The notes: a model not told the origin generated them from the letters alone. Counted from the first letter of the stretch, positions 1 through 8,460 are shown. The stretch is DNA of 64,000 bases from an uncultured SAR86 cluster bacterium (GCA_902509555.1 CABWYS010000002.1:1478-65477), one strand, 5' to 3'. Translations and numbers: made by a program.

Positions 1-2148
1 AAATGGGACATTTAATTTAGCTAAAATTTGAGCTTCATCACCCGTTTGTTTATAGGTAGTTTCAGGGGTAACTTCAAGTGTTCCAGAATACTTACCACCA
101 TACCCCCTGCTTACTAATCCAGGTTTAAAGCCACGTTTAGCTAGTTCATTTGCAATAAATTTAACTAAAGGGGTTTTGCCGGTTCCGCCCATTGAAATAT
201 TACCAACAACAATAATAGGTTTAGGGGAGTTCCAAACTTTTTTAGGGTTCCTTATGTAAGAATTCCTTCGTGCCTTTACTAAAGATGAAAATAAAAAAGT
301 AAGAGGAGCCAAAATATACAACCAAAAGCTTTTGTTGTACCAGGCATCAATTAGATACCCTTGCTGAGATGGCTCTTCGGTAAATGTTGGAAGGTACTCC
401 TTGCCAACAGATTTTTTTGATGGCTTTTTTGGATCTCCAGAATCATTGAATTTATTTTGATATAGGCTCTTGTAGATACCATCTTGGTCTAATAACTCAT
501 CATGAGTTCCTGACTCGGCAACTGAACCATTATCTAAAACTAAAATTTTGTCTGCATTTTCAATGGTCGAAAGTCTATGAGCAATAACAATGGTTGTTCT
601 ATTATTTATTAATTGCTCTATTGCCTCTTGCACAATTAATTCAGATTCATTGTCTAACGCTGAAGTGGCTTCATCTAAGATGATAATTGGTGAATCTTTA
701 TAAAAAGCTCTAGCTATTGCTATTCTTTGTCGTTGACCGCCAGATAATAAGACACCATCATCACCTATTTCAGATTTAAAGCCTTCCGGCAGCCTTGAAA
801 TAAACTCATTGCAGCCAGATATTTCAGCTGCCTCTTTTAATTTCGCTTGATCAATGTCGTTATCGCCGTAGGCAATATTTTTTTCAATCGTGTCATTAAA
901 TAAAGTTGGTGATTGATTGACTATTGAGATAGATTTTCGGAGATGGGATAACTGATAATCTAATATACTTACATCATCTATAGAGATTTTTCCCGAATAA
1001 TCAGAATAAAATCTTGATATTAAATTAGCAATTGTCGATTTCCCTGATCCAGATTTTCCAACAATAGCAATTGTTTCATTTTGGATGATTTCAAAATTTA
1101 AATTATCTAAGACAGATTCTTTGGAGTTATATGCAAAAGAAACATCTGAAAACCTAATATTTCCTATAATATCTGAGTCTAACTCGCCTGTGTCCTCTTC
1201 TTCTTTTGCGTCTAATTGGTCAAAAATTTCTACAGCTGCTGCTAACCCTTTTTGAATAACAGCATTAATATTTGAAAGTTGTCTAATCGGTTTTGCCATT
1301 AATCCCGCTGCGGTTATAAAAGCAACAAAATCTTCAGCGCTTAGCTCTATACCTAGTTGTGAGCCCAATGCAAAATAAGCAACTATAGATAATGAAACTG
1401 AAACTAGAAGCTGGATAATAGGTGTTGCCAAATTACTGGTTGCTTCAAGTTTTAAATTTTGATTTTTATTTGAAGCATTGGCAGCGAGGAATCTATCTTT
1501 TTCATATTTTTCAGCATTAAATGACTTAATTTCTAGATTTCCATCAACTGCCTCAGATGCAAGATGAGTTACATCCCCCATGGCTGTTTGGATTGTTTTC
1601 GCCAACTTTCTTAATCTTCGACCAGCAACATATACTATTAATGCTATAAATGGGGTGGTGATTAATAAGAGCAGTGTTAACTTCCAGTTTAAAGTAAGCA
1701 TATAGGCTAGTAAGCCGACAAGAAGAAACCCTTCTCTTACGAAAGTCTTAATAGCATTTGAGGCAGCACCTGAAACTTGCGTAGTGGTAAAAGTAATTCT
1801 ATTAATCAGTTGGCCTGATTGATTTTGATCAAAGAAATTCTTAGGAAGGTTAATCAGTTTTGAGAATAGCTCAGATCTTAGGTCATGAACAATGCCGAAC
1901 CCAACCCTAGACATAAAATAGTTACCAACAAAAAAGCCTGCACCTCTTCCCATTGCAATAAAAATTAATGCTAGGACAAGATATATGCTGAAATCATCTT
2001 GATCAGAATTGATATATTCAATAATTCTTCTAATCCATTCAACAGCAGCAATGTCTGCCGATGCAAAAAGAATAAAGCCAAAGATACTTAAAATAAATGA
2101 AAATTTAAATCTAAAGGTATACGAAAATAGTCTCTTTAAGGGATTCAT
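1..2148 (-). CDS. msbA: MsbA-type lipid A ABC exporter fused in frame to an LpxK (tetraacyldisaccharide 4'-kinase) domain; the 3' end runs off the window
   Basis: Hand translation of the minus strand from ATG at 2148 finds no stop down to position 1. The ORF is absent from the track because it leaves the window. It has a TM domain and an NBD (Walker A GKSGSGKST, signature LSGGQRQRIAIARA, Walker B ILDEATSALD). A linker follows, then an LpxK-like helix FWLYILAPLTFLFSSLV and P-loop VVGNISMGGTGKTP...SRGYGG. Confidence 0.85.
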   Translation of the reverse strand, partial: MNPLKRLFSYTFRFKFSFILSIFGFILFASADIAAVEWIRRIIEYINSDQDDFSIYLVLALIFIAMGRGAGFFVGNYFMSRVGFGIVHDLRSELFSKLINLPKNFFDQNQSGQLINRITFTTTQVSGAASNAIKTFVREGFLLVGLLAYMLTLNWKLTLLLLITTPFIALIVYVAGRRLRKLAKTIQTAMGDVTHLASEAVDGNLEIKSFNAEKYEKDRFLAANASNKNQNLKLEATSNLATPIIQLLVSVSLSIVAYFALGSQLGIELSAEDFVAFITAAGLMAKPIRQLSNINAVIQKGLAAAVEIFDQLDAKEEEDTGELDSDIIGNIRFSDVSFAYNSKESVLDNLNFEIIQNETIAIVGKSGSGKSTIANLISRFYSDYSGKISIDDVSILDYQLSHLRKSISIVNQSPTLFNDTIEKNIAYGDNDIDQAKLKEAAEISGCNEFISRLPEGFKSEIGDDGVLLSGGQRQRIAIARAFYKDSPIIILDEATSALDNESELIVQEAIEQLINNRTTIVIAHRLSTIENADKILVLDNGSVAESGTHDELLDQDGIYKSLYQNKFNDSGDPKKPSKKSVGKEYLPTFTEEPSQQGYLIDAWYNKSFWLYILAPLTFLFSSLVKARRNSYIRNPKKVWNSPKPIIVVGNISMGGTGKTPLVKFIANELAKRGFKPGLVSRGYGGKYSGTLEVTPETTYKQTGDEAQILAKLNVPF

Positions 2149-2150
2149 GA

Positions 2151-2555
2151 CTAATCAGTATAAGTTTTAATCTGTATGTTTTGAAATCCCAACTGTTTCA
2201 GACCATCCATTAAGCTTATGACCCACTCATGATAGGCTTTGCTTTCTATGGAGAGAACAACAACTTCTGATTTAGAAAAGGTTGCAGCAACTCCAGCCAT
2301 TAATTTATCAATCTCTGTCATAGAAAATTCTTGATTATTAATTATGAGCACCCCAGATTCTAATAAAATAATATTTTGAGAGTTGTTTGATAGAGCTGAC
2401 GCAAATGATTTAGATTCAGGAAGGTCTAAAGTTAGATATTGGTTAGTTTCTATTTTTGATGTAACAACAAAAAAAATTACAAGAAGAAAAACAATATCTA
2501 TCAAGGGAGTAATTTCGATTGAAAGAGCTCTTTCTTTATTATTATAAAATTTCAT
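2151..2555 (-). CDS. exbD: ExbD/TolR-family biopolymer transport protein
   Basis: 134 aa with a single N-terminal TM helix (ITPLIDIVFLLVIFF) typical of ExbD/TolR. It overlaps the upstream exbB-like gene by 4 nt and ends 2 nt before the msbA start. Confidence 0.8.
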   Translation of the reverse strand: MKFYNNKERALSIEITPLIDIVFLLVIFFVVTSKIETNQYLTLDLPESKSFASALSNNSQNIILLESGVLIINNQEFSMTEIDKLMAGVAATFSKSEVVVLSIESKAYHEWVISLMDGLKQLGFQNIQIKTYTD

Positions 2556-3154
2556 TTTTTATATAGAAAATCTAAAAAAATTGACGTATTGGCTTGCAAG
2601 ATTGACATCAAAATTACAGTTTTTTGTTCGAAATACCTATAAAAAACAATAGCTGGTACTGCAATAATTAACCCAAAAGCAGTTGTGATTAAAGCTTCTG
2701 AAATTCCGGCTGCAAGCAAATCTGTATTTGCAGAGCCATTTACGTCAATGTTACTAAAAACCGTTATCATCCCAACAACGGTTCCTAAAAGTCCCAGCAA
2801 AGGACTAATGCTTGCTATTGTGCTCAGCATCGATAAATTTCGTTCAAGGAGTAATTTAATTTCTGAAGCTTTCTCTTCGGCTTTTGTCTCAATAAATTCT
2901 CTTGAATGTAAACGGTATTGATAGCAGTGCTGCAGTAAATCTCCTAATTGAGATGTGGCTGAAATTTCTTGCTGATTTTGAGTGTGAAAAGAATCTTTTT
3001 GAATTAAATTTTGCACCTGTCTTAACAATCCTTTTGGTGCAACCAACCTCCTCTGCAAAAACCAAAGTCTCTCAATCACTATTGAAAAAAGCAAGATAGA
3101 GCAAACAAGCAAAGGCCAAATAAACCATCCACCAGATATTAATAAATTATTCAT
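2552..3154 (-). CDS. exbB: ExbB/TolQ/MotA-family proton-channel protein
   Basis: 200 aa with 3 predicted TM helices. The C-terminal motif SPLLGLLGTVVGMI..F..I is characteristic of the MotA/TolQ/ExbB family. Confidence 0.8.
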   Translation of the reverse strand: MNNLLISGGWFIWPLLVCSILLFSIVIERLWFLQRRLVAPKGLLRQVQNLIQKDSFHTQNQQEISATSQLGDLLQHCYQYRLHSREFIETKAEEKASEIKLLLERNLSMLSTIASISPLLGLLGTVVGMITVFSNIDVNGSANTDLLAAGISEALITTAFGLIIAVPAIVFYRYFEQKTVILMSILQANTSIFLDFLYKK

Positions 3155-3155
3155 T

Positions 3156-3833
3156 TTATGCTGACTTTAAATCTCCATTCTCAATACGAAATACTGCATC
3201 CAGTTTATCAGCATAATTTAAATCATGAGTTGCGACCACAATACCTATATTATGATTTTGAGCTAATTTAATAGTTAAGTTTTGAATTACTTCAGCATTC
3301 TCATGATCTAAGTTACCGGTTGGCTCATCCATTAATACAAACTTTGGCTCATGCACCACAGCTCTAGCAATAGCAACACGTTGTCGCTCACCACCTGAAA
3401 GCATATATGGGTACTTTTCTTGCAATGAAGCGATTCCAAGCTCATCAAGAATCTGGATGATTCTTTTAGAATTTTCGTTAACTTTATTATTATTGGCAAT
3501 CTTAAAAACTAGATTACAATTCTCAAATACAGTTAGGTCATCTAGCAAGTAATGAAATTGATATGCATAGCCAAACAAATTACCCCTCATAGAATTAAAA
3601 TTATTTGAATTATTAGAAGAAAGATTGATTTCGTTAAAAAAAATATCGCCTTGGTCAGGAGTCTCCAACCCAGCAAGAATTTGCAAAAGTGTTGTTTTGC
3701 CACTTCCAGAATAGCCAATAATCCCAATTGAATTGCCCTCGGAAATAGAAAATGAGATATTTGATAAGACCTCCGTTTGATGATCTCCCGATTGATAAGT
3801 TTTACTAATATTTGAGGCTGTAAGTTTATTCAT
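3156..3833 (-). CDS. lolD: Lipoprotein-releasing system ATP-binding protein LolD
   Basis: Walker A GYSGSGKTT, signature LSGGERQRVAIARA, Walker B FVLMDEPTGNLD. It overlaps the LolC/E-type permease gene by 8 nt. Confidence 0.85.
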   Translation of the reverse strand: MNKLTASNISKTYQSGDHQTEVLSNISFSISEGNSIGIIGYSGSGKTTLLQILAGLETPDQGDIFFNEINLSSNNSNNFNSMRGNLFGYAYQFHYLLDDLTVFENCNLVFKIANNNKVNENSKRIIQILDELGIASLQEKYPYMLSGGERQRVAIARAVVHEPKFVLMDEPTGNLDHENAEVIQNLTIKLAQNHNIGIVVATHDLNYADKLDAVFRIENGDLKSA

Positions 3834-5064
3834 GGCGTAAAATAGTTACAGGCTTCAACTTAGCTGCTCTAGCTGCTGGAAAATATGAAAATATTAAGCT
3901 CATTGCAAGAACAGAAAGGCATATATATATAAGTTGAGTTAATCTAAATTCATATGGAAAATAATTAATGAAGTAACTGTCCATCAAACTTCTGTTACTA
4001 AAATTTTCTATAATATTAATGAGCTGATCTATATTAGGGGTTACTGCAATCCCTATCAATAAACCAATAAATGTGCCTAAAAATCCAATAATTAAACCTA
4101 AGTTTAAAAAAATAAATGTAAGTTGAATTTTTGAACAGCCCATAGTTTTTAAGATCGCAATCTCTTTTTCCTTGGTTTTAACTGTCATTACGATGGTTGA
4201 GAGGATATTAAAGGCGGCCACTGTGATAATTAAAAAGAGCATAAGACTTATTAATCTTTTTTCTAATTTAATGGCTTGAAATAATGTTCCATGAGTCTGT
4301 TGCCAAGAAGTAAAATAATAATAGTCTTCATTTAGAAATGGTTGAGCCAGCAAATTAAAACCGAGTGAATTAGCGGCAAATAAATCATTGGTTTTAACTC
4401 TGATGCCTTGGGTAGCATTTTTTGGAAGGTTTAAAATGTTAGCTGCTAAATCATGATGAATTAAAACAAGCGATTGATCTAATTCAGCTTTAAGTTCAAA
4501 TATGCCAACAATCTCTAAAGAAATAGTCCTTGGAAAAGTTCCTATAATTGAAGAACGTAAATTGGTTGTTGTGATATTGACCTTATCTCCAAGCTCTACT
4601 CCTAGGTACCTAGCTAACCAAGAACCTACAATCACTCCTTTATTTGGAGAAATATTATCCAATGACCCACCAGTCATATACTGCGGAAGAATAGACATGG
4701 AACCTTCTAATTCAGGCTTAATTCCTGTAACAAAAACGCCTCTTGATCTATTTTTGGCGCTCATTAATCCCTGAGTTTCGATATAAGGACTCGCACTGAT
4801 AACATTTTCTACGGTGCTTATTTTAGAAATCAATTCCTCGTAATTATCAAGATTTTCATTAGATCGAATAATCAATTGAGGAACTACGCCAAGAACTCTG
4901 GTTTGCAATTCTTTTTCAAAACCATTCATGACAGATAAGACGATAACTAATGCAGCGACACCAAGTGAAAGGCCAGCAGTAGCCATCAAAGAAGTGAAGG
5001 ATGCAAATGCACCCTTCTTTGATCGAAAATACTTGTAGCCCAAGTAAATAGGCAATGAGTTCAT
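3826..5064 (-). CDS. lolC: Lipoprotein-releasing system permease, LolC/LolE family (only one copy in this operon, LolF-like arrangement)
   Basis: 412 aa FtsX/MacB-type permease. N-terminus LGYKYFRSKK, a large periplasmic loop, and 3 C-terminal TM helices. It sits immediately upstream of lolD. Confidence 0.85.
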   Translation of the reverse strand: MNSLPIYLGYKYFRSKKGAFASFTSLMATAGLSLGVAALVIVLSVMNGFEKELQTRVLGVVPQLIIRSNENLDNYEELISKISTVENVISASPYIETQGLMSAKNRSRGVFVTGIKPELEGSMSILPQYMTGGSLDNISPNKGVIVGSWLARYLGVELGDKVNITTTNLRSSIIGTFPRTISLEIVGIFELKAELDQSLVLIHHDLAANILNLPKNATQGIRVKTNDLFAANSLGFNLLAQPFLNEDYYYFTSWQQTHGTLFQAIKLEKRLISLMLFLIITVAAFNILSTIVMTVKTKEKEIAILKTMGCSKIQLTFIFLNLGLIIGFLGTFIGLLIGIAVTPNIDQLINIIENFSNRSLMDSYFINYFPYEFRLTQLIYICLSVLAMSLIFSYFPAARAAKLKPVTILRHE

Positions 5065-5069
5065 AGTAC

Positions 5070-6491
5070 TTAGGTTATCTGCTTGAGAACCTTTTCAATA
5101 TCACCCTTATATGGGGGACGGATTGCAGATAATAATTTGTCGAACCTTGAACCAACTTGCTTATAAACAGCTTTTGCATTACTGAAAGTCTTAAAACCTT
5201 CTTCACCATGATAGCTTCCTATTCCAGATGGTCCAACGCCACCAAAAGGAAGATCTTCTTGCTGTATATGACCCAATACATCATTAACAGTAACGCCACC
5301 TGATGAAGTCCTTGTAAGAACATGCTCTTCTTCATTTTTATTCGATCCAAAATAATATAAACCTAAAGGCTTATCATTTTTATTTACATAGGAGATGGTT
5401 TCATCAATCTCACTAAACTCTTTGATTGGTAGTAAGGGGCCAAAGATCTCCTCTTTCATAATATCCATATCATCTGTAGGATTCATAACAAGTGTTGGAG
5501 GAATTTTGAATGCTTCTTGTTGAGAAAAATCTTCATTAGCGGGATTTATCTCATCTATAACAGCTCCCTTTTCTTTTGCATCATTTAGTAAACCCTGCAA
5601 TCTATCAAAATGTTTTTGATTAACAACAGATGTGTAATCATCGTTATGTTTTAAGTCTGGATAAAAATCTGCAACTGCATCTTTCATGCCAGATACAAGC
5701 TCATCTTTCTTTTCTGAATGAACCATTACATAATCTGGGGCAAGACAGATCTGTCCTGCATTCATTGTTTTGCCAAGCATTATTCTTTTAGCTGCAGTGA
5801 CACTATCAGCAGTATTGCTAACTATAACTGGAGATTTGCCGCCAAGCTCAAGAGTAACTGGGACCAAATTTTCTGCGGCAGCTCTCATAATGTGCTTAGC
5901 AACAGCGCCACTTCCAGTATATAAAAGATGATCAAACTTTTGTTGAGTAAAAGTTGATCCTACTTCTGGGCCACCCAATATAGTTGCAAATTCCTCTTCG
6001 TCAAAAGCAGCATCACAAAGATCTTTTAATAAAGATGAAGTTTGCTCAGTATACTCACTTGGCTTATGCATAATCTGATTACCAGCTGCAAAAATTGAAG
6101 CTGCCGGAGAAAAAGTTAGAAATATAGGGAAATTCCATGGAGAAATCATTCCGACTGTACCTAATGGCTCATAATCCACCGAAGCCTTTGCACCCAAGAA
6201 ACCTAATGGGAAGTTTGGTTTTCTTTTTGAACCTGCCATCCATTTCTTTAGATTTTTCTTTGCATACTCAATACTTGGAATAATTGTATAAACATCCGTG
6301 GCCATAGATTGATTTTTCGATCTAACACCAAAATCATCATTCAATGCATCTACTATCTTGTAACGATTCTCCATGATCAATGTTTTCATGCGATCCAATC
6401 GATCAATTCTTAAATCATATGATGGTGGGCCATTTTTAATAAAATAAGCTCTTTGTTTATTTAGAATATCTTTCATTTGTTGATCTACCAT
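5070..6491 (-). CDS. NAD(P)-dependent aldehyde dehydrogenase (ALDH3 / coniferyl-aldehyde dehydrogenase-like)
   Basis: 473 aa. Catalytic Glu motif LELGGKSP, catalytic Cys motif GQICLAPDY, and C-terminal EIFGP. Confidence 0.85.
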   Translation of the reverse strand: MVDQQMKDILNKQRAYFIKNGPPSYDLRIDRLDRMKTLIMENRYKIVDALNDDFGVRSKNQSMATDVYTIIPSIEYAKKNLKKWMAGSKRKPNFPLGFLGAKASVDYEPLGTVGMISPWNFPIFLTFSPAASIFAAGNQIMHKPSEYTEQTSSLLKDLCDAAFDEEEFATILGGPEVGSTFTQQKFDHLLYTGSGAVAKHIMRAAAENLVPVTLELGGKSPVIVSNTADSVTAAKRIMLGKTMNAGQICLAPDYVMVHSEKKDELVSGMKDAVADFYPDLKHNDDYTSVVNQKHFDRLQGLLNDAKEKGAVIDEINPANEDFSQQEAFKIPPTLVMNPTDDMDIMKEEIFGPLLPIKEFSEIDETISYVNKNDKPLGLYYFGSNKNEEEHVLTRTSSGGVTVNDVLGHIQQEDLPFGGVGPSGIGSYHGEEGFKTFSNAKAVYKQVGSRFDKLLSAIRPPYKGDIEKVLKQIT

Positions 6492-6563
6492 TTTTACCCC
6501 TTTTTATAAATTTAATATGTTTAGTCTATCAGTTAAAGAAAACTCTAAGCTAAGTAACAATCA

Positions 6564-7442
6564 TTAGGTTGATCTTTTCTGTTTATCTGAATCATTTGTT
6601 TTTTTAATCATGCTTCTAATTTCAGACCAATCATCTTCTGACATTTTTGAAAGTTGCGAGAATGTTCCTCCGCCCGAAAGGTACTGAGCGCCATCAAGTG
6701 CAATTGTTTGTCCAGTTAAATATTCACATCCATCAGCCATTAAAAAAGTTGCTAAATTTTGCAACTCACTCATTTGGCCAACTCTACCCATTGGAATGGT
6801 GCTCATTGAGTCCGAATCATCGAGATCCCCCTTTGGGCTAAGTCTAGCCCATGCGCCTTCAGTGGGAAATGGTCCTGGGGCAATGGCATTTATTCTTATT
6901 CCATATGGGCCCCATTCAACAGCTAGAGATTTTGTCATTGTATTAAGCGCAGATTTAGACATAGCTGAGGGCACAACAAATGGAGAGCCCGTCCAAACCC
7001 AGGTAGCAAGAATAGAAATAATAGATCCTTTTATTTTTTGCTCAAGCCATTTCTTTCCTACAGCATTAGTTACATAAAATGTTCCATGAAAAACAATATT
7101 TGCTATTGCATCAAAACCTCTTGCGGACAAATCTTTTGTTGGAGAAATAAAGTTACCTGCAGCATTATTAACTAGTCCATGAAGTGGCCCTTCTTGAAAA
7201 ATTGAATCTATAAAATCTTCCACATCTTGAGGAGAACGAATATCCAGAGGTTGATAACGAACATTTGCTCCATATTTATCTTTAAATTCTGCTGCTGTAT
7301 CAGCGAGTACGCTTTCCCTCCTTCCGCATATTACCAAGTCAGCTCCATGCTGGACATAATGCTCTGACATCTCTTTACCTAAGCCAGTGCCTCCCCCAGT
7401 AACTAATATTTTCTTTCCTTTTAGAATATTTTCTTTAAACAT
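6564..7442 (-). CDS. Short-chain dehydrogenase/reductase, 2,4-dienoyl-CoA reductase-like
   Basis: 292 aa. Cofactor motif VTGGGTGLGK, typical of DECR-type SDRs. Rossmann fold architecture. Confidence 0.7.
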   Translation of the reverse strand: MFKENILKGKKILVTGGGTGLGKEMSEHYVQHGADLVICGRRESVLADTAAEFKDKYGANVRYQPLDIRSPQDVEDFIDSIFQEGPLHGLVNNAAGNFISPTKDLSARGFDAIANIVFHGTFYVTNAVGKKWLEQKIKGSIISILATWVWTGSPFVVPSAMSKSALNTMTKSLAVEWGPYGIRINAIAPGPFPTEGAWARLSPKGDLDDSDSMSTIPMGRVGQMSELQNLATFLMADGCEYLTGQTIALDGAQYLSGGGTFSQLSKMSEDDWSEIRSMIKKTNDSDKQKRST

Positions 7443-7452
7443 TTAGATCCTT

Positions 7453-8460
7453 TTATTCATTAGTAATATCTATAATAGCTTGAACCCACGCATCTGAAAA
7501 ATTTAATGATGGTACGTAATCTAAGGTTTGACCCCCAGCCTTGTTAAAAAGTTCTTTATATTCATCGCCAATCTCAATAACAGTTTCGAGACAATCAGCA
7601 GTAAATGCTGGCGAAAAAATAAGCACTTTTTTAATACCCATTTTAGGGTAATTTGATAAAACAATATCAGAAAAGGGTTCTAGCCAATTATTTGTTAATC
7701 GTGACTGAAATGTAACCTCATAATCATCTCTCTTAAGAGATAGTTTTTCAGCTATTAGTTTAGAGGTTTGATAAACTGCTGCTTTATAACAGTACAGATT
7801 CTCTTCATTAATTTCATGCTCACAATTCTTTCCATTGCATTGATGATCCTGATATACCTTATCTACTTGAGAGTTTGGTAGACCGTGATAGCTGAAAACT
7901 ACCTTATCATAAGCATCAAGATTAAAGTTTTTTGCAGTATCTACCCATGCATTTATGAATGATGGATGGTCATAATATTGAGATATAAACTTAAATGAAG
8001 GAATAACCCAGTTTTTTGAGAGCCTTTTAGTTACTTCTTTAAACACACTACCAGAGGTTGCTGAAGCATAATGAGGAAAAAGTGGCAAGACAACTAATTC
8101 AGATGGATTGGTTTCTTCAATACGATCTAATACTTGTTGAATACTTGGGTTTTGATATCGCATTGCATAATAAACATTATATTTTTCTTGTTTTTGATTT
8201 AATTTAATTGTTAATTCTTCTGTATTTTTCAGTAATGGGGAAACTCCTCCTGAAAGATTCCAAAGTTTTTTATAGATCTTGCTTGAACTAAATGATCTAA
8301 ATGGACAAATAATTAAAGTTACAAGCACGAATCTAAGCATGTATGGAATATCAATAACTCTTCCATCCATTAAAAATTCTCTTAAATACTTAAAAACATT
8401 TAAGTACGAGGGGGAATTTGGTGTTCCTAAATTAATTAGTAATAACGCTGGTTTGTTCAT
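7453..8460 (-). CDS. hemH: Ferrochelatase
   Basis: 335 aa. N-terminus ALLLINLGTPNSP, plus LPLFPHYASATSGS and SYHGLP motifs typical of HemH. Confidence 0.9.
   Translation of the reverse strand: MNKPALLLINLGTPNSPSYLNVFKYLREFLMDGRVIDIPYMLRFVLVTLIICPFRSFSSSKIYKKLWNLSGGVSPLLKNTEELTIKLNQKQEKYNVYYAMRYQNPSIQQVLDRIEETNPSELVVLPLFPHYASATSGSVFKEVTKRLSKNWVIPSFKFISQYYDHPSFINAWVDTAKNFNLDAYDKVVFSYHGLPNSQVDKVYQDHQCNGKNCEHEINEENLYCYKAAVYQTSKLIAEKLSLKRDDYEVTFQSRLTNNWLEPFSDIVLSNYPKMGIKKVLIFSPAFTADCLETVIEIGDEYKELFNKAGGQTLDYVPSLNFSDAWVQAIIDITNE

Follow-up and report, generated by a model that had tools for sequence, protein, structure and literature searches.

We have analysed a 64,000-nucleotide stretch of DNA (hereafter the window; G000:C2:1478-65477) from an uncultured SAR86 cluster bacterium, whose assembly (G000) comprises 1.05 Mb with approximately 34% G+C and is 70% complete, and we focus on an exbB-like and an exbD-like gene (hereafter the pair) that lie between genes for a lipoprotein-release (Lol) transporter and a fused msbA::lpxK gene. 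Transcription at the locus runs on the minus strand in the order aldehyde dehydrogenase gene, lolC/E-like gene, lolD, exbB-like gene, exbD-like gene and msbA::lpxK (Table 1). As stated in the original prediction, the last five of these are joined by short overlaps or by gaps of one to two nucleotides (nt). Specifically, the lolC/E-like gene and lolD overlap by 8 nt (3826-3833), lolD and the exbB-like gene are separated by 1 nt (3155), the exbD-like gene starts over the stop of the exbB-like gene with an overlap of 4 nt (2552-2555), and a gap of 2 nt (2149-2150) precedes msbA::lpxK. A profile search detected no TonB_C or TonB_2 gene in the window, in keeping with the earlier statement that a TonB-type partner is not encoded at the locus, and the sole TonB_C match of the assembly is on contig C34.

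Table 1. Genes at the locus in window coordinates, in order of transcription (aa, amino acids).
Gene or product	Position	Strand	Basis and remarks
Aldehyde dehydrogenase gene	5070-6491	minus	PF00171, 285.5 bits; context only
LolC/E-type permease, 412 aa	3826-5064	minus	TIGR02212 lolCE, 389.1 bits, cut-off 362.45 passed
lolD, ABC ATPase of lipoprotein-release transporter, 225 aa	3156-3833	minus	Best NCBIfam match TIGR02211
ExbB-type (PocA-like) proton-channel subunit, 200 aa	2552-3154	minus	PF01618 MotA_ExbB, 111.8 bits
ExbD-type (PocB-like) subunit, 134 aa	2151-2555	minus	PF02472 ExbD, 74.8 bits
msbA::lpxK, first 716 codons	1-2148	minus	Runs past the window start to G000:C2:869; MsbA TIGR02203, 631.1 bits, cut-off 602

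From these joints the five genes had been regarded as very likely one operon. The tight joints stand, but they lose much of their weight as operon evidence since the median spacing genome-wide is 3 nt. Spacing was taken from a crude open reading frame (ORF) call in which the longest ORF was chosen and which inflates overlaps; by this call, 455 of 678 same-strand neighbour pairs in the genome lie at most 10 nt apart. Because close packing is the genome norm, the tight joints are not special to the lol, exb and msbA genes, and while co-transcription of the locus genes is plausible, the short distances between them say little about an operon here. Neither promoter-like sites (23 vs 29.3 +/- 6.3 in shuffled sequences) nor terminator-like sites (4 vs 3.9 +/- 2.0) were in excess in positions 1-7600. 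In five RNA-library runs at most 0.07 of the sampled words were present, and the contigs of four RNA runs cover scattered short pieces of positions 1-6500 (17 of 30 bins for X5); one RNA-library contig of 151 nt spans the junction between the exbB-like and exbD-like genes, and such contigs cannot reveal transcript, strand or operon. The aldehyde dehydrogenase gene, although unrelated to the others, lies only 5 nt from lolC, and lolC is directly preceded by an ORF of 464-483 aa (called without a family scan) in five of five other genomes of the order. If this ORF is the aldehyde dehydrogenase gene, the adjacency is conserved without an evident functional link, and the aldehyde dehydrogenase-lolC adjacency is a caution against inferring function from gene order in this lineage.

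Compared with the NCBIfam models, both proteins of the pair score below the cut-offs. The exbB-like protein reaches 90.3 bits for TolQ (TIGR02796; cut-off 221), 69.1 for ExbB (cut-off 206.2), 68.3 for a second ExbB model (cut-off 135.35) and 26.6 for MotA (cut-off 340), and the exbD-like protein 50.6 for TolR (TIGR02801; cut-off 127.3) and 36.9 for ExbD (cut-off 123.45), where the uptake-type ExbB/ExbD models were TIGR02797/02805 and TIGR02803/02804. TolQ and TolR are the best-scoring models for the pair, though sub-threshold. For the channel subunit the nearest solved structures are ExbB 5sv0 (54.7 bits) and TolQ 8odt (51.4 bits); for the small subunit they are TolR 9ddm (28.5 bits) and ExbD 7ajq (24.2 bits). 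In an alignment of 36 family members, T125 and T158 of the exbB-like protein are invariant and align with 5sv0 at its GTV and TA(T)xG motifs; the exbD-like protein has a transmembrane Asp (D20) that does not vary among 27 lpxK-linked homologs and corresponds in alignment to the Asp of 9ddm. Judged by its scores, the pair is neither TolQ/TolR nor a classical uptake ExbB/ExbD. A homologue search was of no help for distant orthology, the best 120 of 7901 matches all being at least 70% identical, near-identical marine metagenome proteins.

The pair was also followed across other genomes. A 36-sequence alignment was used to search species-representative genomes. It confirmed 594 of the 598 candidate stretches found there, from which the 80 best loci were retained and then searched for neighbours with the window proteins (tblastn, E <=1e-5, at least 40% query coverage); only loci with enough flanking sequence were counted. 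The representative search gave a large family of proteins of approximately 200-215 aa with 35-45% identity to the window exbB-like protein. The retained loci include Pseudomonas, Stutzerimonas, Halopseudomonas, Marinobacter, Halomonas, Marinomonas, Lysobacterales/Xanthomonadales, Steroidobacteraceae, Woeseiaceae, Methylobacter, Salinisphaera and Kangiellaceae and, beyond Gammaproteobacteria, a few Betaproteobacteria, with a Burkholderiales metagenome-assembled genome and Vogesella among them. An ExbD-like gene adjoins the exbB-like gene in 68 of 76 loci, and LpxK follows on the same strand within 3.5 kb downstream in 58 of 62, with MsbA right after ExbD in 43 of the 62 and LpxK right after ExbD (the Pseudomonas form) in 16. 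KdsB is located within 5 kb in 52 of 57 loci and LolD upstream on the same strand in 46 of 58. In the 46 loci with at least 7 kb of upstream sequence and LolD, the gap between lol and the pair is at least 648 nt and usually 2.3-3.5 kb, and ComEC occupies the lol-to-exbB gap in five of five sampled loci. The Pseudomonas-type order is comEC-exbB-exbD-(msbA)-lpxK-kdsB, and two genomes from another family of the order (G020 and G026) have lolC-lolD-exbB-exbD-msbA-lpxK-kdsB without comEC, like the window. The order exbB-exbD-(msbA)-lpxK-kdsB is conserved across Gammaproteobacteria, and the neighbourhood that the original prediction had named for Pseudomonas- and Xanthomonas-type genomes was found there and far beyond the lineage.

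Within this family, the exbB-like protein aligns along its entire length with the lpxK-linked proteins of five named genomes, at 37-44% identity and 136-165 bits, while the other paralogs of these genomes score at most 81 bits against it. In the reverse search the lpxK-linked protein of each of the five best matches the protein of the window or that of the same-genus relative G012 (131-166 bits vs at most 81 bits for the next class). All six TolQ rows, one of which is an uncertain ORF call, best match the G012 TolQ, and for the TtpC-like proteins and the small ExbB proteins the best matches likewise stay within their own class. A quick maximum-likelihood tree was computed after dropping two rows, L042 (325 aa, an ORF called wrongly and placed on a very long branch) and G033_other122 (long branch), and in this tree the clades without lpxK-linked rows, i.e. 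TolQ (96), MotA/PomA (100) and small ExbB (99), are supported. The predicted orthology of the pair is based on synteny together with best matches, and the tree does not contradict it.

With respect to Pseudomonas, the P. aeruginosa gene order PA2984-PA2983-PA2982-PA2981-PA2979 was assembled from passages of several papers. In these passages PA2984 is a ComEC-like channel and PA2983 an ExbB homolog in a table of competence-gene homologs (PMC7660920), deletion of PA2982 results in non-polar flagella and non-polar FlhF (PMC13680508), pocB corresponds to PA14_25500 (PMC6321873), and LpxK and KdsB are PA2981 and PA2979, respectively (PMC3327687). Five Pseudomonas-group loci (L041, L067, L092, L094 and L097) match the P. 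aeruginosa tag order exactly, and the Stutzerimonas locus among them (L092) reads lolCDE-comEC-exbB-exbD-lpxK-kdsB. According to the passages available, Poc ("polar organelle coordinator") is a PocA-PocB-TonB3 complex with homology to ExbB-ExbD-TonB, on which polar flagella, type IV pili and the placement of FlhF depend (PMC5285504; bioRxiv 10.1101/2023.12.15.571843; PMC12713375), while the complex itself is non-polar and its mechanism is called unclear (PMC5285504; bioRxiv 10.1101/2023.12.15.571843). The P. putida name for the system is TonBm-PocAB, and inactivation of the P. stutzeri exbB beside comA is cited as lowering transformation (Graupner and Wackernagel 2001, via PMC10234333). The earlier remark that the pair has no assigned function is thereby overtaken, since these passages present the Pseudomonas orthologs as PocA/PocB with TonB3/TonBm and the P. 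stutzeri ortholog as a competence-associated exbB.

A candidate for the third component was found away from the locus. In the same-genus genome G011, a TonB-family protein of 205 aa (within the class of 213-236-aa open frames) is encoded between gshB and ruvX, and the order gshB-TonB-like-ruvX is present in all 15 relatives examined (13 of the same genus, plus G020 and G026). Likewise, gshB is followed by a TonB_C protein of 244-312 aa in five of five named genomes carrying the lpxK-linked pair, i.e. P. flexibilis, a Halomonas, a Marinobacter, a Marinomonas and a Salinisphaera, the last having an AlgH/YqgE-like gene after gshB-TonB_C. The corresponding P. aeruginosa order is presumably gshB (PA0407), tonB3 (PA0406), yqgE and ruvX. 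An alignment of 18 TonB-like sequences shows an invariant His in an N-terminal hydrophobic stretch and a common C-terminal TonB domain, with the linker mostly lost in the proteins of the marine lineage. In the source genome the TonB3-like gene was not seen; the place where it would be expected is just past the start of contig C11, outside the assembled sequence, and dnaG, the ruvX neighbour in G011, is cut at residue 126 by that contig start. Completeness reaches at least 90% in 13 genomes of the order; three of these (G011, G020 and G026) carry the pair as well as the TonB3-like gene, and ten have neither. The pair thus behaves like one module with the TonB-like gene, the two being gained or lost together, and the term "orphan" used in the original prediction is no longer appropriate given the TonB-family gene at gshB-ruvX that co-occurs with the pair. 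A complex prediction for two G011 ExbD-like chains and the G011 TonB3-like protein (with alignments) gave a score of 0.00 against a mark of 0.32, which speaks neither for nor against binding.

Taken together, we consider it probable that the pair is a third Ton/Tol-like proton-driven stator, orthologous to Pseudomonas PocA/PocB, that its TonB-like partner is encoded elsewhere, and that a role in the envelope is the likeliest. By homology with the solved ExbB5-ExbD2 and TolQ5-TolR2 motors, the proteins would form a 5:2 stator in which the exbB-like protein is the channel and the exbD-like protein the plug or rotor. Protons would pass Asp20 of the ExbD-like subunit within the ExbB-like pentamer, and the resulting movement would be passed to the membrane-anchored TonB3-like protein through its N-terminal helix with the invariant His; the C-terminal TonB domain of this protein may then act on a periplasmic or outer-membrane target.

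A different reading is that of a stator without any TonB/TolA partner, which would energise or regulate LolCD and/or MsbA::LpxK directly. The linkage with lpxK, msbA, kdsB and lol is ancient and widespread, and in the order the pair is placed directly between lolD and msbA::lpxK in a window lacking a TonB gene, all of which speaks for this reading. We nevertheless regard it as improbable: the TonB gene at the gshB site follows the pair in its presence and absence as given above (3 both, 10 neither), comEC separates lol from the pair in most Gammaproteobacteria, close spacing is the norm in this genome, and in five of five pair-less sister genomes (families f2, f3 and f4) lolD meets msbA::lpxK with anything from an 11-nt overlap to a 69-nt gap. 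Sister lineages have lost the pair together with the TonB-like gene and kept lolCD-msbA::lpxK, so Lol, MsbA and LpxK do not require the pair. The proposal of a dedicated stator for the biogenesis of outer-membrane lipids or lipoproteins is accordingly weakened by these five near-complete sisters.

The proposed inventory of other Tol and Ton sets yielded a TonB2-type cluster in the source genome and a TolQRAB cluster in G012. The former, on contig C34, has the order DUF3450 (uncertain)-TtpC-like (460 aa)-ExbB (174 aa)-ExbD (136 aa)-TonB-TPR, which from its gene order we take to be a TonB2 system with TtpC of the Vibrio type. Its TonB (L007:2408-3125) is present as two overlapping ORFs of 133 and 113 aa, where relatives have a single open frame of 241 aa, and the split may be due to a frameshift or sequencing error. 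TonB_C proteins in the relatives fall into four classes, a TolA-like protein beside TolB, TonB2 beside the TtpC-like gene, a frame of 128-133 aa with no stator gene noted beside it, and the 213-236-aa frame. Most genomes of the order, pair-less ones included, have a frame of approximately 126-133 aa whose match to TonB_C is strong, at up to 76 bits (e.g. G012:C1:715072-715305 and G011:C4:79529-79765). The TonB2-type cluster and the short TonB_C frame without a noted stator neighbour could be taken to mean that the pair is a spare ExbB/ExbD for TonB2-type uptake or for another TonB-dependent receptor pathway in nutrient import. This is very unlikely, and we rejected it: the TonB2 set has ExbB, ExbD and TtpC-like genes of its own, and the pair tracks the gshB-linked TonB-like gene, whereas TonB2 and the short TonB_C protein occur also in pair-less genomes.

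Could the pair instead be the TolQ/TolR of this genome, split from tolA-tolB-pal? TolB, Pal and TolA models had no match in the assembly, and TolQ and TolR are the best NCBIfam models for the pair; but the scores fall far short of the cut-offs, the assembly is incomplete, and relatives of the same genus have TolB in 17 of 18 cases, a separate TolQ frame of approximately 232 aa in 16 of 18 and the approximately 200-aa exbB-like paralog with its ExbD-like neighbour in 15 of 18. In G012, a TolQ scoring 264 bits, above the cut-off of 221, is clustered with TolR-like, TolA-like and TolB genes (G012:C1:452032-454781) in addition to the exbB/exbD-like pair, and the reciprocal best hit of TolQ proteins is TolQ and not the window protein. 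Since relatives hold separate TolQ/TolR/TolA/TolB besides the pair, the pair is an extra paralog, as had been suggested, and the Tol-Pal cluster is most likely in the unassembled 30% of the source genome. We therefore give almost no credence to the TolQ/TolR assignment, which the separate TolQ of the relatives already refutes for the genus. Equally hard to credit, and rejected, is a function in DNA uptake with ComEC as for the P. stutzeri comA-exbB, for which the ComEC directly upstream of the pair in five of five sampled loci of other Gammaproteobacteria, the cited P. stutzeri phenotype (PMC10234333) and the listing of PA2983 among competence-gene homologs (PMC7660920) speak, yet the ComEC family PF03772 was found in none of the order's 31 genomes, although 13 are at least 90% complete, and the pair is kept in three genera.

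The organelles associated with Poc in Pseudomonas were likewise not found. The flagellar export gene FlhA was found in none of the 31 genomes, and no PilB/PilT-like match was detected among the genomes of the order searched. The only strong T2SSE-type match is one ATPase of approximately 500 aa (~499 aa) in some of the genomes, the copy of the source genome being part of a type II secretion system (T2SS) cluster. This cluster (G000:C2:75100-84100; L098:3121-12092), located outside the window, encodes the secretin GspD together with GspE, F, G, I, J, K and M. The T2SS ATPase is patchy in the genus, being missing from several same-genus genomes including G011 (92% complete) and broken in G012. 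G011, without this ATPase, keeps the pair and the TonB-like gene. As FlhA, PilB/PilT-like matches and ComEC were not found, the Pseudomonas phenotypes, i.e. flagellum and pilus placement and transformation, have no substrate here. For P. putida, the title of a 2019 report by Ainsaar, as cited, names membrane integrity. By exclusion, and from this P. putida report and the linkage to lipid A and lipoprotein genes, the retained function is most likely envelope integrity or organisation, possibly coordinated with lipopolysaccharide (LPS) and lipoprotein export given the ancient linkage.

A further step would be that PocAB-TonB3 is at its root a motor for envelope biogenesis or homeostasis with ties to the export of lipid A/LPS and lipoproteins. 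The organelle and transformation defects in Pseudomonas would then be secondary to a disturbed envelope. The retention of the pair beside lolCD and msbA::lpxK in streamlined marine genomes of approximately 1.0-1.5 Mb where searches gave no flagellar export gene, PilB/PilT-like match or ComEC, and the gain or loss of the pair and its TonB-like partner as a unit, support this idea, which we offer tentatively and with more doubt than belief.

Several points weigh against the interpretation of the pair as a Poc-type stator with an envelope role. In the tree with two rows dropped, the branch that sets the 23 lpxK-linked rows apart has an SH-aLRT support of only 14.7%, and orthology was shown to other Pseudomonas, Stutzerimonas and Ectopseudomonas, the P. 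aeruginosa PocA/PocB/TonB3 sequences lying outside the comparison. The correspondence between PocA and PA2983 is partly our assumption. The Poc phenotypes (Cowles 2013, Ainsaar 2019) were taken from passages citing these studies. The TonB3-like gene was not found in the source assembly and its presence is deduced from a contig break; the co-occurrence counts come from related genomes and are neither independent events nor a statistical test. Moreover, the envelope role was reached by exclusion and the target of the TonB3-like C-terminal domain is putative. Finally, a fourth, weak match to MotA_ExbB is present in three genomes of family f2, away from the lolD-msbA::lpxK junction; these matches score 36-40 bits in frames of 192-221 aa (G022:C1:338859-339122, G025:C1:364983-365273 and G028:C1:926895-927212).

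What the data do indicate is that Poc orthologs and a co-inherited TonB-like partner persist where the flagellar export gene, a PilB/PilT-like match and ComEC were not found. This persistence without the organelles, in combination with the linkage to lpxK, msbA, kdsB and lol across Gammaproteobacteria, points the search for the primary function of Poc to the envelope, and the small genomes of this lineage are offered for comparison. If the tentative view of Poc as an envelope motor at its root is true, these genomes constitute the simplest natural setting for finding the outer target of the TonB3-like protein. For annotation purposes, the pair should not be called TolQ/TolR, iron-uptake ExbB/ExbD or orphan.

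The flanking genes have features of their own. The full msbA::lpxK frame is 918 aa (G000:C2:869-3625; L006:869-3625) and comprises ABC_membrane, ABC_tran and a complete LpxK (PF02606, 317.4 bits, profile positions 3-327 of 328), and the fusion is genuine. LpxK is likewise part of a single open frame of 913-951 aa in five of five other genomes of the order, that of G012 measures 917 aa, and one frame covers msbA and lpxK in nine of the 80 fetched loci; the fusion is order-wide. When the literature was searched for an msbA::lpxK fusion, the terms used brought up papers on the msbA-lpxK operon of E. coli and no mention of a fusion. That operon is similar in that lpxK follows msbA on the same strand, and differs from the present arrangement with its one 918-aa frame and a stator pair in front; we know of no such stator pair at the E. 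coli site. A kdsB fragment lies 3' of the msbA::lpxK frame on the G000 contig, outside the window (L006:1-722; G000:C2:1-722), and ends after 128 codons, overlapping a murB fragment on the opposite strand. In G012, kdsB (245 aa) and murB share one strand, and the truncated kdsB and its overlap with murB at the contig end are probably an assembly artefact. As to the Lol genes, no second LolC/E-type gene was found in the 70% complete assembly and the relatives also have one LolC/E-type permease gene at the locus, which suggests a transporter with a single permease instead of LolC plus LolE. Concerning LolCDE/LolDF, the permease scores above its cut-off (Table 1) and LolD below (235 vs 307.75 bits for TIGR02211), and the name lolD is based on this best match and on the location after the lolC/E-like gene.

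Of the known systems, TolQ-TolR-TolA shares with the pair the superfamily, the protein sizes and the best NCBIfam models, and the structures 8odt/9ddm are about as close as those of ExbB/ExbD. Unlike TolQ-TolR, the pair is far under the cut-offs and unlinked to tolA-tolB-pal, and relatives hold a separate true TolQ. With ExbB-ExbD-TonB it has in common the superfamily and, presumably, a 5:2 stator that passes energy to a TonB-family protein; it differs in scoring below the cut-offs and in having no adjacent tonB, and the TonB2-type set with its own subunits is at another locus (C34). The P. stutzeri comA-exbB shares the orthologous locus and differs by ComEC, which was not found in the 31 genomes of the order. 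Closest is PocA-PocB-TonB3 of P. aeruginosa (PA2983, PA2982 and PA0406; TonBm-PocAB in P. putida), with which the pair shares an ExbB-type and an ExbD-type gene upstream of lpxK, directly so in Pseudomonas. Between the window proteins and the lpxK-linked pair of Pseudomonas-group genomes best hits are reciprocal, the Asp and Thr residues of the putative proton path are kept, and the TonB-family partner is encoded apart, next to gshB (as seen here in relatives). Differences from the Pseudomonas Poc locus are that comEC is missing, lolD abuts the pair, and an msbA is there, in fusion with lpxK; the TonB-like protein of the lineage is 205 aa with almost no Pro-rich linker vs 244-312 aa for the TonB_C proteins of the five named genomes; and neither a flagellar export gene nor a PilB/PilT-like match was found in the genomes of the order that were searched, whereas the Poc phenotypes concern these organelles. 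Hence, the Poc kind of system was already known, and what is added here is its retention without flagella, pili or ComEC, its loss jointly with the TonB partner, and the order-wide fusion of msbA to lpxK.

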